Part shown: positions 29,126 through 54,520 of the stretch, piece by piece
Numbering within the stretch: position 1 is the stretch's first letter
Layout: each line of letters opens with the position of its first letter
Assembly (NCBI GenBank): GCA_963703285.1
Contig: OY969807.1
Location: 288,001-352,000 of the forward strand
Reading direction: 5' to 3'
Source: an uncultured Nitrososphaerota archaeon
Lineage (GTDB): Archaea; Thermoproteota; Nitrososphaeria; Nitrososphaerales; Gagatemarchaeaceae
DNA length: 64,000 nt
Made by a program: the position numbers and the translations under genes
Notes under the pieces: generated by a model
The model's database searches: none
What the model was told of the DNA's origin: nothing
What the model saw: only the letters and a program-made list of their open reading frames with translations

Positions 29126-30115
29126 ATGAAGAGAATCGGTTTCATCGGTCTCGGCATCATGGGAAGGCCGATGTCGCAGAACCTGCTCAGTGCAGGATAC
29201 CCCCTTACGGTCTTTAACAGGAGCAAGGGCGCCTCCGACGCGCTCGCCTCACTCGGAGCAAGGGTCGCAGCCTCGCCGAGAGACGTCGCGGCAGAGTCTG
29301 ACGTGGTGATAACGATGGTGACGGACACTCCCGACGTGGAACAGGTCATCCTCGGGCCCCGGGGCGTCATCGAGGGCGCCAGGAAGGGCCTCGTCGTGAT
29401 AGACATGAGCACCATCTCGCCGAAGGCGACCCGCGAAATCTCTTCGAAGCTGGCCGGGGTCGGCGCGCAGATGCTGGACGCCCCCGTGAGCGGCGGGGAC
29501 AAGGGCGCCCGCGAAGGCACTCTCACTATAATGGTCGGCGGGCCGGAGGAGGCTTTCAATGACTGCCTCCCCGTGCTCCAGGCGATGGGGAAGAAGGTCG
29601 TCCTGATGGGCGGTCCGGGCTCCGGGCAGCTGACCAAGCTCGCCAACCAGATCCTCGTGGCGGGCAACATGATGGGCGTCTGCGAGTGCCTCGTCTTCGC
29701 CAGGAAGGCGGGGCTCGACCCGAGGACCGTCATCGAATCGCTCTCGGCCGGGGCTGCCTCGTCATGGAGCCTCGTGAACCTGGGTCCCAGGGCTGCGGAC
29801 GGGGACTTCGCGCCCGGCTTCAAGGTCAAGCTCCTGCAGAAGGATCTCAGGCTCGTCCTCGGCACCGCCGATGACCTAGACGTCTCGCTCCCCAACACCA
29901 GCCTCGCCCACCAGCTGTACAACGCACTGGACGCCGCCGGGGAGGGGAATAAAGGAACCCAGGCTCTGATAAAGGTATACGAGCGCTTGTCGGGGTTCTG
30001 CTTCGTTAGCGGGGTGATGGGTCGGGGTGGTTCATTTGGGGTGATTCGTCGCACCATGAGCGATTTCCGAGATTGCTTCGGTTCCTGTAACTCCTCGTCG
30101 GAATCGTCTTGGTGA
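29126..30115 (+). CDS. NAD(P)-dependent beta-hydroxyacid dehydrogenase (GarR/MmsB family); C-terminus replaced by transposon-end sequence
   Basis: GFIGLGIMG; DAPVSGG; KLANQ; after ..YERLSG the frame reads through the TIR starting at 29994. Confidence 0.88.
   Translation: MKRIGFIGLGIMGRPMSQNLLSAGYPLTVFNRSKGASDALASLGARVAASPRDVAAESDVVITMVTDTPDVEQVILGPRGVIEGARKGLVVIDMSTISPKATREISSKLAGVGAQMLDAPVSGGDKGAREGTLTIMVGGPEEAFNDCLPVLQAMGKKVVLMGGPGSGQLTKLANQILVAGNMMGVCECLVFARKAGLDPRTVIESLSAGAASSWSLVNLGPRAADGDFAPGFKVKLLQKDLRLVLGTADDLDVSLPNTSLAHQLYNALDAAGEGNKGTQALIKVYERLSGFCFVSGVMGRGGSFGVIRRTMSDFRDCFGSCNSSSESSW
29994..30045 (+). repeat. Left TIR GGTTCTGCTTCGTTAGCGGGGTGATGGGTCGGGGTGGTTCATTTGGGGTGAT
   Basis: Exact reverse complement of 33231-33282. 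Confidence 0.95.
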
Positions 30116-30369
30116 TAACTGTCGTCGGATTTGACCGCCGCCTTCTTTGGGTGCCTGAAACGGTAGTTGCTTTCTGATTGGTAGCCCGCCAGTGCGAGTC
30201 TTTGCATCACCCGCTCAGGAAGAATGTGCTTGTGCCAAAAGCCGTCTCTTCCTCTGAGGTAAAGGATGTTCCCTTCCAGTCGGTAAGGTCTGGTGCAGAT
30301 GTGCTCTTCCATCTCTTCAAGAATGACCCTCGCCCCGCATCTGGGGCACAGGACGATTGAATCCATCAA
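29994..30369 (-). CDS. Cargo zinc-finger (CPRC..H.C) protein lacking a stop codon inside the element
   Basis: MMDSIVLCPRCGARVILEEMEEHIC; TTGA overlap with upstream gene; frame runs out through the TIR. Confidence 0.5.
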
Positions 30370-31085
30370 GGGCCTTGCACTACTTCGGTCTCGGTGAGTA
30401 GTTCATCCAGCATGATTTCGAAGAAGTGCAAGTCCTTCGCGTTGAGGGCGACAGACTTGATGAGGCTGTTCTCATTCCTTTTGAGCCTCTTGTTTTCCTT
30501 GCTCTGAGACTTGAGTTGCTTCTGCATTTCGTCGCGTTGACTCTTCAGTCTGCCCACGTAATCTCTGAGTTGCATCAACTCCTCATTCAGCATCTTCGCT
30601 GTCTGGGCGGGACTCTGAACCTCTTTGCTGTCCGAATCGAGTTCTTCAAGGTCTTCCTCGATTACCTCAAGGTCTGCGAGGTCAAATCCTGCTCTCAGCA
30701 GTTCGGTTTCTGCCTGTTCCAAGGTGCCGACTCTGTGTACGGTGAAGTCATAGAGGCCACCTTCTCCATCCCATCCCATCTTGCTGAGTTTTGAAAGCGC
30801 CTCAGCCGTAAATTCTAAGCGCTCTTTGAGTTCTTGACCCTTGCTCCGCATTTCAGCGATCAGTTCAGTCGTGAGAACGCCGTTTTCAAATCCCTGAATT
30901 TCCCAACTGGGTTTGCCGAAAAGGAAGAGTGTGGTCGAAATCACGATGCTTGGTGACTTTTGCTTCTTGATTCGGGGTGGCGCTTCTGAGACGAGGGTTT
31001 CTGAGATTCCTGTGTGAGAGGACATCATCTGCTCCTCGTCCATCTCATCAAAGGCTTTGGCGGCTCGCAATGCTTCTTCCTTCAA
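30366..31085 (-). CDS. Cargo hypothetical protein with acidic linker and C-terminal coiled coil
   Basis: 239-aa ORF translationally coupled (4-nt overlaps) to both neighbours. Confidence 0.65.
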   Translation of the reverse strand: MKEEALRAAKAFDEMDEEQMMSSHTGISETLVSEAPPRIKKQKSPSIVISTTLFLFGKPSWEIQGFENGVLTTELIAEMRSKGQELKERLEFTAEALSKLSKMGWDGEGGLYDFTVHRVGTLEQAETELLRAGFDLADLEVIEEDLEELDSDSKEVQSPAQTAKMLNEELMQLRDYVGRLKSQRDEMQKQLKSQSKENKRLKRNENSLIKSVALNAKDLHFFEIMLDELLTETEVVQGP

Positions 31086-31273
31086 TGCTTCTCTCCCTTT
31101 CTATGCCTCTTCATGGCCTCGGTGACTTCCTTGGGTAAAGCGTCTCTTCTGGGCTTATTCCAATACGGTGACTTGCACTTCGGGCAAATCACAGGCTCCC
31201 CTTCCGTAGTCGCCCTCGGCACCCAAGTATGACCGCACCTCTCGCACTTGTATCCTTCCAGCATCAACTTCAT
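31082..31273 (-). CDS. Cargo zinc-ribbon microprotein
   Basis: YKCERCGHTWVPR ... CPKCKSPYWNKPR. Confidence 0.75.
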   Translation of the reverse strand: MKLMLEGYKCERCGHTWVPRATTEGEPVICPKCKSPYWNKPRRDALPKEVTEAMKRHRKGEKH

Positions 31274-31419
31274 TAGTTGTGTGCACTTACCTTTTACATA
31301 TATACTTAGTGCATAGGCTTTAGCACATATCTGCTAATAAGCCACCCCCAAAACATCTCTCTATGGGAGTAGTGTTATATACCCGTTGGGTGATACCTAT
31401 TAGGTATGAGCCCAGAACA
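31274..31419. promoter_or_regulatory. AT-rich divergent promoter with several inverted repeats
   Basis: TATA-like CATATATAC and GTTATATA; TTAGCA-N6-TGCTAA (31320-31337); ATACCTA-T-TAGGTAT (31393-31407). Confidence 0.5.
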
Positions 31420-32616
31420 ATGGCGAAAGGTCAGACGCATCCGAAGGAGAAGGGGATTTTGAGCAACCCCTCACCTTCCGACGCGCGAATGACAAGGGGT
31501 CTTGAGATTGCCAAGATGAACGTCATAGCAGAGAATCCTGACGGCTCTTTCAGCGTTCCTTCGCAATCGGTTGAGGAAATAGCATATCTGGTAAGGGCGA
31601 TTGACGGTGAGTATCTCTGCAACTGTCTGGACTTCAAGCAGAGGCGCGAGCAAATCAAGGCGTGCAAGCACATCCACGCGGTTCGATTCTGGGTCGCTGC
31701 ACAGGTCGAGTTAGAACAAAAGCCCAAGCCCAAGGTCTTCGCGGACGACGCGACCCAATGCCCCAAGTGCGGCTCAATCCGAGTAGTCAAGTGCGGAAGG
31801 AGCAGGGGCAAGCAGGCTTTCAGGTGCAACGACTGTCTGCACAGGTTCAGGGAGCAGAGCCTGATCCGACGGTCGAGGTATTCGCCAGAGATGGTCAGCC
31901 TCACTCTCGACCTTTATTTTTCTGGAATGTCGCTCAGGAAGATTTCTCGGACAGTGAACAATCACTTTGACCTGAACCTCGGAAATGCGACAATCTATCG
32001 CTGGATTCAGAGGTTCATCCCTCAAATCTCCGAATATGTCAATTCCCTGACTCCACAACTCTCCGACACTTGGCACGCAGATGAGCTGTTCGTCAAGATG
32101 AAGGGCGGGGTCAAGGAGAGCCAGTACGGTCAGAAGAACATGGCCTTCCTTTGGAACGTGATGGACAGGAAGACGCGGTTCCTTCTCGCCTCCAAACTGT
32201 CTGAGAAGCGGTGCGTGGTCAGCGCGGCAGGCGCGTTCAGGGAGGCGATTCAGAACGCCCATGAGAGCAGACCGGAGAGAATCTTCACCGACGCGCACAA
32301 GTCATACAAGGATGGAATCGAGATTGCCTTCGGTCAGGAGCGCCCCGAGCACATCGCCAAGGCGGGCATGGGCAAGCCCCACGCCAACAACAACCGCATA
32401 GAGCGGTTGAACGGGACGCTCCGCGAGAGGGTCAAGGTCCAGCGCGGATGGAAGAGCATGACTTCACAGATCGCCGAAGGTCAGCGTATCCAGTATAACT
32501 TCGTCAAGCCTCACATAGCCTTGGATGGGCAGACACCTGCGCAAGCGGCGGGTGTCGGCATAAACGGGAGAGACAAGTGGATGGAACTGCTTAAGAAAGC
32601 CATGATACAGGGATGA
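31420..32616 (+). CDS. IS6-family DDE transposase with N-terminal SWIM finger and zinc ribbon
   Basis: CNC..CKH (SWIM); CPKC..CNDC; HTH (SLRKIS..ATIYRW); WHADE, IFTDA, NNRIERLNGTLRER catalytic motifs. Confidence 0.88.
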   Translation: MAKGQTHPKEKGILSNPSPSDARMTRGLEIAKMNVIAENPDGSFSVPSQSVEEIAYLVRAIDGEYLCNCLDFKQRREQIKACKHIHAVRFWVAAQVELEQKPKPKVFADDATQCPKCGSIRVVKCGRSRGKQAFRCNDCLHRFREQSLIRRSRYSPEMVSLTLDLYFSGMSLRKISRTVNNHFDLNLGNATIYRWIQRFIPQISEYVNSLTPQLSDTWHADELFVKMKGGVKESQYGQKNMAFLWNVMDRKTRFLLASKLSEKRCVVSAAGAFREAIQNAHESRPERIFTDAHKSYKDGIEIAFGQERPEHIAKAGMGKPHANNNRIERLNGTLRERVKVQRGWKSMTSQIAEGQRIQYNFVKPHIALDGQTPAQAAGVGINGRDKWMELLKKAMIQG

Positions 32617-32628
32617 TGCAGGTAAGCC

Positions 32629-32841
32629 ATGAGAATGTCCGTCTCGGAGGTGGTCGAGATAGCCAAGAAGTTTGTAAGATCACAAGCGGGCTACTCCAGT
32701 GTAGAAATTGCATCCGTAGACGCTCTCACACAGCAAGGGAGATGGAAGGTGCTCGCTGACGTGGGATTATTTGCGACCATGAGAAAGGAACTGATAATTG
32801 ATGATAGCGATGGAAACATCCTCTCCTACAGGCAAATTTGA
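32629..32841 (+). CDS. Cargo small PepSY-like protein
   Basis: SVSEVVEIAKKF ... WKV ... IIDDSDGNILSY. Confidence 0.55.
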   Translation: MRMSVSEVVEIAKKFVRSQAGYSSVEIASVDALTQQGRWKVLADVGLFATMRKELIIDDSDGNILSYRQI

Positions 32842-33226
32842 AAGAATTTCTGAGTATCTAAAGATGCGGGACCAGTATTACAAGAACGCTGAAGAGTTCA
32901 TAGGGCGTGGGGAGCTAAGAAAATCATCAGAATTACTCTGGGGTGCAATCTCGCAGAGCATCAAGGCGTTGGGTATACTTGCAAATCAAGAACTCGTCAG
33001 TCATAGGGACTTCTTTCCGTTTATGCAGCAGCTTTCTAAAGAATTAGGCGATCCCAGCTTATACGAGGATTTTGTCGACCTTAACACTCTACACAGAAAT
33101 TTCTATGACGAGTTTATTCCTCCTGAAGCATTTCCACTTTTTTTCAGAAAGGCCACTCTTTATGTCAAGAGAATCAATGACCTGATTCAAACCAAAGTAG
33201 GAAGACCAGCCAGGGAGAAAGGGTAA
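32810..33226 (+). CDS. PaREP1/HEPN-like protein
   Basis: AEEFIGRGELRKSSELLWGA ... SH ... LHRNFY. Confidence 0.75.
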   Translation: METSSPTGKFERISEYLKMRDQYYKNAEEFIGRGELRKSSELLWGAISQSIKALGILANQELVSHRDFFPFMQQLSKELGDPSLYEDFVDLNTLHRNFYDEFIPPEAFPLFFRKATLYVKRINDLIQTKVGRPAREKG

Positions 33227-33230
33227 CGCC

Positions 33231-33282
33231 ATCACCCCAAATGAACCACCCCGACCCATCACCCCGCTAACGAAGCAGAACC
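33231..33282 (-). repeat. Right TIR of the IS6-family element
   Basis: Exact reverse complement of 29994-30045. Confidence 0.95.
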
Positions 33283-33404: not shown

Positions 33405-33434
33405 GACCCGTCACCCCGCTAACGAAGCAGAACC
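33405..33434 (-). repeat. Orphan third transposon end (right-end orientation)
   Basis: GACCCGTCACCCCGCTAACGAAGCAGAACC, 29/30 identical to the terminal 30 bp of the right TIR. Confidence 0.9.
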
Positions 33435-52339: not shown

Positions 52340-52630
52340 ATGAAGTACATGACGGACGCCAACGTGAGCGGTCTCGCGAGGGAGCTGAGGGCGCGGGGGG
52401 TCGACTGCGAGACGGTCCACAGGCTCATGCTGGGGAACGAGGACTCGCGCGTTCCGATATCCGACCCCCAGATCGTCAAGTTCCTTTCTGACAAGGGCGG
52501 CTCGATAACCCTAATCACGCTCGACAGCGAGCTCGCCTCCTACTGCGCCGCCTTCGGAATCTCGTGCATCCGGCTGCAGGACCTCGTCATCGAGCACATC
52601 TCCCCCGCAGGAACAAAGCTACCTAAGTAA
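52340..52630 (+). CDS. DUF5615/Mut7-like PIN protein
   Basis: MKYMTDANV ... ISDPQI ... LITLD. Confidence 0.7.
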   Translation: MKYMTDANVSGLARELRARGVDCETVHRLMLGNEDSRVPISDPQIVKFLSDKGGSITLITLDSELASYCAAFGISCIRLQDLVIEHISPAGTKLPK

Positions 52631-52790
52631 AGTAGCGGTTCTGTCAACTCTTCGGCTCATGTCCGAAGGAGTCAACTTCCACCCATCTGCTCGGAGGATT
52701 ACCCGCCTTCTCCTGCCTTCGGGGTTCCCCTTCACCGCTTCTTCTGGGTGGCCGAGCCGCACGAACCTGTGCGGCCATCATGATGTTCCT
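52617..52790 (-). ncRNA. Predicted omegaRNA (reRNA) scaffold + guide of TnpB; boundaries approximate
   Basis: Overlaps the tnpB 3' end as in known TnpB loci; hairpin GCCGCAC/GTGCGGC (52756-52775), CCACCCA/TGGGTGG pairing, terminal hairpin 52643-52676. Confidence 0.55.
52629..52636 (+). repeat. 8-bp target-site duplication AAAGTAGC, copy 1
   Basis: Abuts the TIR at 52637; identical to 53873-53880. Confidence 0.9.
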
Positions 52791-53872
52791 CGATGCGTTC
52801 GCGTCCCTATCCTCGGTCTTGCCGCAAGAGGGACAGATCACCGTCCGTCCCTCGAATCTCTGAGAGGAGCCACACTTCGAGCAGTTTCGGGACGTGTAGC
52901 GCGGGCTCACGTATGTGACGGGGAGACCCTCCCATCTTGCCTTGTACTCGATTTGCCTTTGAATTTCCCGGAAGGTCCAGGAGTTCATCCTGCCTCTGTA
53001 GACGGCATCCTGCCAATTCCCTTTGCGGTAGAGCTTCCGTATCCCTTTCAGCCTCTCCATGACCGCACCGAATCGCTTCCGTTTCGCCTCCTGAACGATG
53101 GCCCTGCTGATCAGGTGAAGTCTGTGAACCGTCCTGTCCTTTTCCCTCCTTCCGTACTTGCGATAGAGGCGCTGGCTGACTCGTCTGTCCTGCCTTGTCC
53201 GATTTCCTATCTTCGCCCTAATGTCCCTATATCGCTCCCTGAGCTCGGAAATCTCGGAGGTGTCGTACCGGGCCACGCGTCCAGACGCGTCTGACGTGGT
53301 GACGTTCCTCTCGTTCACGTCTAGTCCTACGTTACCTGCGATGTCAATCGTCGCGGATTCCTTCGAGAACGCGATCGAGAGGCCCTGAGGCGTAAGAGTG
53401 ATGGAGCCTTTCCTGAGGCTTGAATCGTCGATGAACGCGAGGTGGTACCTGGAGCCCTGCAGGACAAGGTAGACGAACTGCCTGGGCCTGGTCGGGATCC
53501 TCAACACCATGTGGTTCAGGAGGTACGACTGGCTGTCTAGCTTGAGAAAGACGCGCTTCACGTACGGTCGTGACCTTCTCTCCTTGTTGCGATATATCGA
53601 GAATGCGACTTCGCAGGCCGAAAGCAGGTAGTGAGTGTGGAGACCGTACTCCTTCAGGCGGGAGTATGCGAGCCTGATTAGAGCGAACCTATTCTTGGGC
53701 TTCTCCTGCAATGCTATCCTGATGGCGTCGTTGCACATCAGGCGGAAGTCCTCCAGGAGGGAGCCCAGCTCCTGGGAGTAGGCGTAACTGAACCGGACGG
53801 CCCTGACGGCTCGCACATCTTCTCTGTTCCGCCGAATACTTAAGCGCCATGAGCCGAAGGGGTACTAGAACC
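52637..53872 (-). mobile_element. Non-autonomous TnpB element with IS6-like TIRs and 8-bp TSD
   Basis: TIRs 52637-52661 and 53848-53872 (20/25 match, both ending GGTTCT); TSD on both sides; only tnpB inside. Confidence 0.88.
52644..53816 (-). CDS. tnpB: RNA-guided endonuclease TnpB
   Basis: RuvC-I GLDVN, RuvC-II MERL, Zn finger CSKC..CPSC, RuvC-III DRDANASRNI; all three catalytic residues present. Confidence 0.92.
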   Translation of the reverse strand: MRAVRAVRFSYAYSQELGSLLEDFRLMCNDAIRIALQEKPKNRFALIRLAYSRLKEYGLHTHYLLSACEVAFSIYRNKERRSRPYVKRVFLKLDSQSYLLNHMVLRIPTRPRQFVYLVLQGSRYHLAFIDDSSLRKGSITLTPQGLSIAFSKESATIDIAGNVGLDVNERNVTTSDASGRVARYDTSEISELRERYRDIRAKIGNRTRQDRRVSQRLYRKYGRREKDRTVHRLHLISRAIVQEAKRKRFGAVMERLKGIRKLYRKGNWQDAVYRGRMNSWTFREIQRQIEYKARWEGLPVTYVSPRYTSRNCSKCGSSQRFEGRTVICPSCGKTEDRDANASRNIMMAAQVRAARPPRRSGEGEPRRQEKAGNPPSRWVEVDSFGHEPKS

Positions 53873-53880
53873 AAAGTAGC
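53873..53880 (+). repeat. 8-bp target-site duplication AAAGTAGC, copy 2
   Basis: Directly follows AGAACC at 53872. Confidence 0.9.
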
Positions 53881-53914
53881 AAAGGTTTTAACGAGTCGGG
53901 CCGGCCAAACTCTC

Positions 53915-54520
53915 ATGGCTAAGACCTACACTCTTCCGCCGCTGCCGTACGCCTACAACGCTCTCGAACCGTACATATCGCAGCAGATAATGACGCTGCA
54001 TCACGACAAGCACCACAACGCCTACGTGACGGGCGCGAACGCAGCCCTCGACAAGCTCGAGAAGGCGCGGGCGGGGCAGATGCAGATTGACGTGAGGGGC
54101 GTCCTCAGGGACCTGAGCTTCAACCTGGACGGCCACAAGCTCCACTCTCTCTTCTGGCCGAATATGGCCCCCGCAGGAAAGGGAGGAGGCAAGCCCGGAG
54201 GGAAGCTGGCCGACAAGATCGACGCCGACTTCGGGGGGTTCGACAAGTTCAAGCAGCAGTTCGGAGACGCGGCCAAGGCCGTGGAGGGTGTGGGATGGGC
54301 CCTCCTATGTTACGATTCTGAACTGGGTCAACTCATGATGACACAAGTCGAGAAACAAAACGTGATGCATCTGGCCGAACTCCCAATTCTGCTGGGCTGC
54401 GACGTTTTTGAACACGCATATTACTTGCAGTATCTGAACGACCGAGGAAAGTACGTCGACGCTTGGTGGAACGTGGTGAACTGGGACGACGTCGGGAAAA
54501 GGCTGGACAAAGTGAAGTAG
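53915..54520 (+). CDS. sod: Fe/Mn superoxide dismutase
   Basis: LPYAYNALEPYI; HHDKHH; DVFEHAYY; BRE/TATA-like AAAGGTTTTAA at 53881-53891. Confidence 0.95.
   Translation: MAKTYTLPPLPYAYNALEPYISQQIMTLHHDKHHNAYVTGANAALDKLEKARAGQMQIDVRGVLRDLSFNLDGHKLHSLFWPNMAPAGKGGGKPGGKLADKIDADFGGFDKFKQQFGDAAKAVEGVGWALLCYDSELGQLMMTQVEKQNVMHLAELPILLGCDVFEHAYYLQYLNDRGKYVDAWWNVVNWDDVGKRLDKVK

Follow-up and report, generated by a model that had tools for sequence, protein, structure and literature searches.

A window of 64,000 nucleotides from an uncultured soil archaeon of the Nitrososphaerota (contig OY969807.1 of assembly GCA_963703285.1, positions 288,001 to 352,000) contains, at 52637-53872, a 1236-bp element whose sole gene is an intact tnpB. 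Most probably, this is an IS6/IS26-type transposon that is not autonomous: it carries only tnpB and a putative omega RNA and is moved by an IS6 enzyme acting in trans, with guide-based homing as a possible second way of spreading. The element sits between two exact copies of an 8-base sequence and has inverted repeats at its tips. Its ends resemble those of IS6 elements, and the two kinds of element have a common preference of insertion site. Coordinates are those of the window, except where they start with C1, which is the single 2.25-Mb contig of the same genome that contains the window.

Anatomy of the element

The 8-mer AAAGTAGC occurs at 52629-52636 and again at 53873-53880, as an exact duplication that abuts both element ends. 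The right end (RE) is the inverted repeat on the 3' side of tnpB, GGTTCTGTCAACTCTTCGGCTCATG (52637-52661), and the left end (LE) is the one on the 5' side, CATGAGCCGAAGGGGTACTAGAACC (53848-53872). The two pair at 20 of 25 bases. An earlier note on this DNA had reported these inverted ends and the exact 8-mer at both junctions, and direct reading of the sequence agrees. In a repeat search over 52400-54100, the inverted pair (25 nt, 80%) also ranked first among 94 pairs. With 300 x 300 end positions allowed for, the probability that chance gives a 20/25 inverted repeat together with an exact abutting 8-mer can be roughly put at 2e-8.

The right end reads GGTTCTGTCAAC.., which has the GG tip and the cTGTt motif by which IS6 ends are described (PMC7986276). 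Its terminus, ..GACAGAACC, is kept among divergent tnpB copies. The left end, GGTTCTAGTACC, is more degenerate than the right end, and a GCTTAA(A/G)T block is conserved across the left ends of related copies.

The tnpB gene lies on the minus strand at 52644-53816, as seen from both the reading frame and profile matches, and encodes 390 amino acids from a GTG start. About 24 nt upstream of the start codon, also on the minus strand, there is a TTAAGTAT box (53836-53843), which is probably the element's own archaeal promoter. The protein scores 83.7 bits against Pfam PF07282 (cut-off 26.3) and 116.9 bits against NCBIfam NF040570 guided_TnpB (cut-off 100). It contains the motifs GLD166VNE, VME254RL and D336RD338ANAS, as well as a CxxC..CxxC zinc finger made of C312, C315, C328 and C331. 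The stretch around E254, which is at the MERL motif, and the zinc finger align with solved Cas12f/TnpB chains. Judging by these motifs, D166, E254 and D336/D338 would be the catalytic D-E-D of the RuvC domain. The gene had been described earlier as intact, with D-E-D and zinc finger, and the profiles and motifs agree with that.

The last part of the element, at 52637-52751 on the minus strand, is a conserved, structured region that resembles an omega RNA. Its upstream part lies within the end of tnpB, and it stops exactly at the element boundary. Over these roughly 115 nt, copies whose proteins are 35% identical still have 82% DNA identity, so the stretch is conserved far beyond the needs of the protein. 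An RNAalifold analysis of 17 copies gave compensatory changes in 14 of the 21 predicted pairs of the shared structure. Because this structure ends where the element ends, the RE inverted repeat is also the 3' terminus of the presumed omega-RNA scaffold. This means that a guide made by reading through the end would start with the duplicated bases: on the tnpB strand, the 8-mer at 52629-52636 would form the first 8 bases of the presumed guide.

No Rfam family matched over 52400-54000 at E <= 1. Within the same genome there is a 311-bp derivative (C1:1229977-1230287) that has a tnpB-type left end and the omega-RNA-like part, no gene, and an exact duplication, TAGACCGA. A 500-bp miniature element at C1:141349-141848 has IS6-like ends and an 8-bp duplication, and no recognisable RNA part. 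A phylum-wide BLAST search with the 104-nt RNA region matched 2 of 401 genomes, and is too insensitive to judge distribution. Its lone foreign match, L256, is a degraded tnpB at which no duplication was found.

Directly beyond the right copy of the duplication, at 53881-53892 on the plus strand, lies AAAGGTTTTAAC, a core promoter resembling the B recognition element (BRE) and TATA box. It belongs to an Fe/Mn superoxide dismutase gene (sod, by Pfam), with its ATG at 53915. Read on the tnpB strand, the promoter gives ..CCTTT, a T-rich motif directly 5' of the duplication. In relatives without the element, the promoter is conserved as GCAAAGGTTTTAAC. At the other side, the left copy of the duplication overlaps the stop codon of a conserved open reading frame (ORF) of 96 amino acids, at 52340-52630. 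This ORF has no Pfam match and is found beside transaldolase and sod in many relatives. Several other relatives lack it, and there transaldolase directly adjoins sod.

The earlier note had suggested looking for the empty allele, and the outcome speaks for its reading. In relatives without the element, the spacer before sod has one ..GTAGCAAGG.. or ..GCAAAGG.. (GCAAAGGTTTTAAC) stretch and no second 8-mer, and a single stretch at the orthologous spacer would fit one AAAGTAGC before insertion. A near-identical empty allele was not found among the sequences searched. In four runs of one study, which may be the assembly's own source, contigs span both junctions, X1 and X3 the left one and X2 the right one, and none skips the element.

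Related copies and their insertion sites

Homologues of this TnpB were gathered from relatives, public genomes and metagenomes. The close ones belong to the Thaumarchaeota/Nitrososphaerota, including 'Candidatus Gagatemarchaeum'. Right ends were set with an nhmmer profile, after which the next 8 bases were sought within 350 nt upstream of tnpB. As controls, 8-mers lying 10-38 nt further out were used (n=307). The 8-mer after the right end recurs exactly at 13 of 39 non-redundant loci, versus 2 of 307 controls. When a match at 7 or more of the 8 bases is accepted, these numbers become 24/39 and 58/307. Exact 8-bp duplications are therefore about 50 times commoner at tnpB loci than in controls.

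The homologous elements terminate in GGYTCT...AGARCC, and their duplicated 8-mers vary from insertion to insertion. This is what the earlier note had proposed to look for in the flanks of homologues. In two copies, L045 (CGAGGTTC) and L049 (TGCTGAAG), the duplication is exact and the inverted ends are perfect over 24 bp. Among 28 further loci that represent other subfamilies, exact duplications were seen in L192, L198, L201 and L211.

The genome that contains the window has about nine tnpB genes, and six copies (A-F) are linked to an omega-RNA-like region. Copies A, C, D and F have an exact duplication, while that of E matches at 7/8 and that of B has an indel. A second copy at C1:2133252-2134474, 84% identical, has the same ends as the element in the window and a duplication that is off by one inserted base. 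Four other, divergent copies (30-36% protein identity) have the ..ACAGAACC terminus and imperfect inverted ends. Three of their duplications are exact (GAAAAAGT, CAGCACCT and GAAGAGAA), and the fourth, TCTGAAA[A/T], is inexact.

For comparison, 47 IS6 loci were examined (41, plus 6 carried over from an earlier set). Of these, 21 have an internal transposase gene, clear GG..CTG.. inverted ends and an 8-bp duplication, which is exact in 20 and matches at 7/8 in one.

Both kinds of element turn up in front of genes. Read on the host strand, the duplication is followed by about 5 bases, a TATA-like box and, after another 25-35 nt or so, a start codon; for the element in the window, the sequence is AAAGG TTTTAAC ... 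ATG of sod. Of the left-end sides of tnpB elements, 20/33 have a TATA-like box at +5..+14 from the duplication, and of the right-end sides 4/33. For IS6 elements the counts are 9/21 at the 5' end of the transposase and 6/21 at the 3' end; random positions have such a box in 76 of 1590 cases. The two IS6 elements with known sites in the own genome, described below, give ATACG CATAAATA (IS6_1) and ATACC GTTATATA (IS6_2). Promoter-proximal insertion is a property common to IS6 and tnpB elements. This supports common machinery, and it also explains much of the T-rich motif.

It is in fact possible, if on the unlikely side, that it explains all of it. IS6-type mobilisation would then hold, and the T-rich motif would be the BRE/TATA promoter of the neighbouring gene and nothing else. 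The transposase, or its liking for promoter DNA, would pick the site, TnpB would be cargo or have another role, and orientation would reflect selection on transcription. The motif in the window is indeed the conserved sod promoter, which relatives have without any element. Similarly, 15 of the 21 IS6 elements, which have no tnpB, have the same-spaced TATA-like box on at least one side, versus 4.8% of random positions.

Two features are specific to the tnpB elements, and both speak against this explanation. The first is orientation. The left end of tnpB elements faces the promoter in 20 cases versus 4 (p = 8e-5), whereas IS6 elements are divided 9 versus 6.

The second is the three-base motif in the closest subfamily, which is defined by at least 59% protein identity (for L022, by 72% DNA identity). 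On the tnpB strand, the three bases beside the duplication are TWT in 14/14 events of this subfamily, which is AAA or ATA on the host strand. On the promoter-like sides of IS6 elements, AWA is found in only 4/15 (Fisher 5e-5). Other tnpB subfamilies mostly have TTA on the tnpB strand, or TAA on the host strand. A motif that changes with the tnpB subfamily is not predicted by the site preference of one common transposase. Counted 5' of the left duplication on the tnpB strand, 19 of 21 events have T at position -3 and 16 of 21 at position -1, whereas no base bias is seen at the mirror position on the opposite side of these elements. Left out of the motif counts, as chance matches, were L047, L060, L108, L113 and L206, as well as secondary hits in L089, L127, L192 and L197.

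Candidate transposases

Since the element contains no DDE_Tnp_IS240 or transpos_IS6 gene, it can at most be a non-autonomous IS6 derivative. Across 146 tnpB loci there is likewise no intact IS6 gene, which means that mobilisation would be in trans. Variable 8-bp duplications in combination with inverted ends point to a DDE transposase and exclude the Y1 and serine pathways.

The IS6 family is described as having GG tips, a cTGTt motif, 8-bp repeats, ends of about 15-25 bp, and non-autonomous derivatives such as MITEs, the miniature transposable elements with inverted repeats (Varani et al. 2021, PMC7986276). The 8-bp direct repeats are exact at the copy in the window and at the 13 of 39 related loci noted above. 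IS6 DDE genes occur in 37 of 61 genomes (the own genome plus 60 relatives), and the own genome has three.

The best match is IS6_2, a 4626-bp element at C1:1251536-1256161 with ends GGTTCTGTTAACTCTYCGTCATCG and an exact duplication, CGACAGCG. Its end agrees with the tnpB right end at 13/14, 17/18 and 18/24 bases, depending on the length compared. The tnpB-element end set against transposase-element ends reads GGTTCTGTCAACTCTTCGG. The 406-aa transposase of IS6_2, encoded at C1:1254934-1256154 and about 910 kb from the tnpB element, is the best helper candidate in this genome. The earlier note had allowed for a sister IS6 transposase as the cognate enzyme. The transposase gene of IS6_2 is at its right end, with about 3.4 kb of cargo to the left, and the element adjoins a TATA-like box. 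A further IS6 element of this genome, IS6_1 (C1:1357534-1360318, 2785 bp), has ends GGTTCTGCTAACTCGG and duplication CCCCGAAG.

IS6 elements that have the inner motif in common with the tnpB element, for which the same note had proposed a search, do exist. Besides IS6_2, there is an element in a relative, L233, with ends GGTTCTCCTAACTCTTCGGC. The IS6 element L165 has ends GGTTCTGGTAACTC, to be compared with the left end GGCTCTGGTAACTC of the tnpB element L192.

The IS6-type element that had been pointed out some 20 kb away in the window is real, and fits less well. It spans 29994-33282 on the plus strand (3289 bp), carries cargo, and has long perfect inverted ends starting GGTTCTGCTTCG, located by a GGTTCTG pattern search. 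They are identical over 40 compared bases, and over about 52 by eye. A 417-aa DDE_Tnp_IS240 protein is encoded inside it, at 31363-32616. Yet its end matches the tnpB right end at only 8/14 bases. Its present flanks lack an 8-bp duplication, so it may be rearranged. The transposase has an N-terminal extension ahead of the IS6 domain. As cargo there are a 239-aa ORF that has no match in Pfam and, at 32798-33226, a gene of the PaREP1 family. The end also occurs a third time, on its own, 152 bp further on, ending at 33434.

Another DDE family that makes 8-bp duplications could in principle have moved the tnpB element, for example IS1595, of which type there are two transposase genes in the own genome. 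This is very unlikely. The ends of both IS1595 copies, CGCTCATGTGACTGATTAGTAGGAT, are unrelated to GGTTCTGTCAAC, and of the other DDE families searched, ISL3, DDE_Tnp_1 and Mutator, none has a match in the own genome. The two IS1595-type elements are identical, 1314 bp long, and lie in inverted orientation within C1:1214-1245 kb. The 7-8-mers that flank them (TTCATTA / AAAACCG) are exchanged, which is the footprint of an inversion of the roughly 29-kb segment between the copies.

Finally, an ordinary IS200/IS605 (IS1341-group) or IS607 element, with an inverted repeat that stems from subterminal hairpins and an 8-mer that recurs by chance, can hardly be what lies here: the right end does hold a hairpin (CTCCTTCGG..CCGAAGAG), so that part of the end similarity could be palindromy, and the own genome does have one IS607-type pair of serine recombinase and tnpB genes, but the exact, copy-variable duplications at 50 times the control rate remain, both inverted ends and duplications are absent from these families by description (PMC13565253, PMC6188088), and a profile search for Y1 found no match in the own genome and matches in 2 of the 61 genomes. 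The Y1-type tnpA that would have spoken for such an element is thus not seen in this genome. The IS607-type pair is at C1:684734-686262 (684.7-686.3 kb). Its recombinase gene, at C1:685.9-686.3 kb, adjoins a different tnpB and is the sole resolvase-family match in the genome.

Proposed mechanism and known systems

For the preferred reading, that of an IS6-type transposon carrying tnpB, the steps would be as follows. An IS6-family transposase of the IS6_2 type, supplied in trans, would bind both ends and insert the element with an 8-bp stagger, which leads to the AAAGTAGC duplication. The same machinery would put elements of both kinds, IS6 and tnpB, at some 5 bp upstream of TATA-like boxes of archaeal promoters, in this case that of sod. 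A tnpB/RNA transcript would then read out through the right end, with a guide made of the duplicated 8 bases and the next 10 or so bases of the flank. All three sequence checks that the earlier note had proposed turned out in favour of its non-autonomous IS6-TnpB element moved in trans. What the data show directly is the anatomy, the 8-bp duplications across the family, the likeness of the ends to IS6 ends, the common site preference, and the bias in orientation and motif; the identity of the moving enzyme, the making of the RNA, the TAM and homing are inferred from these.

In an uninterrupted allele, the guide sequence would directly follow the T-rich motif (TTT or TAT in the closest subfamily). 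If that motif serves as the target-adjacent motif (TAM), the TnpB complex could cut the empty allele. An occupied allele would escape cutting on both sides. At the left, the match behind the motif would break off after 8 bases, where the left end begins. At the right, ..AGAACC would stand before the full match in place of the motif. Repair from the occupied copy would then spread the element, which is homing. IS6 elements are described as transposing through cointegrates and not by excision (PMC7986276), so the process would amount to homing into naive alleles and would not restore an excised element.

A more ambitious version of this is plausible, though short of probable. TnpB would have been adapted to life in a target-duplicating transposon. 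The variable 8-mer would open the guide, and the complement of the promoter's BRE-like bases, provided by the promoter preference that the IS6 transposase itself has, would act as TAM. The nuclease could then cut just the empty promoter-proximal allele and drive the element into it. The TAM and the transposase target would have co-evolved as in IS605, with the difference that a DDE enzyme works in trans. A staggered cut by TnpB itself was also considered as the source of the duplication, and rejected. The duplication abuts the T-rich motif, and TnpB cuts far from its TAM.

Several observations count against the proposal. No transposase was found inside or beside any of the 146 tnpB loci searched, where the lone IS6 match is a partial gene at the edge of a locus, so that resemblance is the sole ground for naming the enzyme. 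About one third of tnpB loci have no duplication, and the left ends of L065, L082 and L186 resemble the right end little. Within one genome, the copies share only 84-90% identity and thus give no hint of recent bursts. The contigs from the four runs, all of one study, show the occupied allele only. The T-rich motif belongs to the promoter of the neighbouring gene. As IS6 elements without tnpB land at the same type of site, much of the motif signal needs no TnpB. The orientation bias could stem from selection against transcription into the host promoter. In addition, the motif classes and the TATA score were fixed after the data had been viewed, the events were chosen by eye, and related genomes are not independent samples.

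The association of TnpB with DDE transposases is not new. Altae-Tran et al. (2023, PNAS, PMC10691335) describe six DDE-associated TnpB branches, DDE-1 to DDE-6, all with inverted terminal repeats, and the main text names IS630. The paper also reports solo TnpBs with ends like those of transposase-bearing relatives. A 2026 review (PMC13565253) lists ISL2, IS630 and IS1031 as TnpB-linked transposases, calls the association rare in prokaryotes, and gives tentative reasons for it. The novelty that the earlier note saw is therefore narrower than it seemed, since TnpB in DDE elements with inverted ends has been published for other IS families. IS6 is named neither in the main text of the 2023 paper nor in the accessible part of the review; the 2023 supplements may list an IS6-linked branch. 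The IS6 review (PMC7986276) never mentions TnpB, and only lists one member with a passenger gene. A literature search for work joining TnpB and IS6 found none, and the co-mentions were, by title and abstract, resistance or genome surveys.

Like the DDE-1 to DDE-6 branches, the element described here has inverted terminal repeats around tnpB, with the 3' end of the gene near one transposon end. Unlike them, as far as they are described, it has no transposase in cis, a presumed helper in the form of a separate IS6 element, often with cargo, and a variable 8-bp duplication. With IS6/IS26 and their MITEs it has in common the GG tips, the CTGT motif, ends of about 15-25 bp, and 8-bp direct repeats. 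It differs in lacking a transposase, and in that one inverted repeat would also end the guide-RNA scaffold.

The solo tnpB elements of the IS1341 group (IS200/IS605) similarly have tnpB as the sole gene, with an omega RNA that overlaps its 3' end, as the omega-RNA-like region does here. They also occur as few and diverged copies; solo tnpB of haloarchaea, for example, is reported at low copy number with very diverged copies (PMC3119063). In contrast to the present element, they have subterminal hairpins, no inverted ends or duplication, and they depend on Y1 TnpA, with insertion 3' of a short motif.

The Fanzors of eukaryotic DDE transposons are likewise TnpB-type nucleases on transposons that duplicate their target. 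There, the TAM is described as including the 5' duplication, and the RNA scaffold as containing the 3' one (PMC13565253). Here, however, the duplication is variable, the conserved motif is upstream of it, and the duplication would start the guide.

For the IS6-type elements of these archaea, the finding means that their insertions keep a fixed spacing to the TATA box downstream of them, a preference not found in the accessible part of the IS6 review (PMC7986276). The nucleases are compact, at 390 aa, and the flanks allow their likely TAM to be read. The geometry can be tested: motif, then 8 duplicated bases, then element. TnpB is the ancestor of Cas12, and its accepted role is to restore IS605 and IS607 elements after scarless excision. 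Here, several archaeal TnpB subfamilies together live in IS6-type elements, which duplicate their target and, going by the IS6 family, do not excise; these would need the logic of homing instead of post-excision repair.

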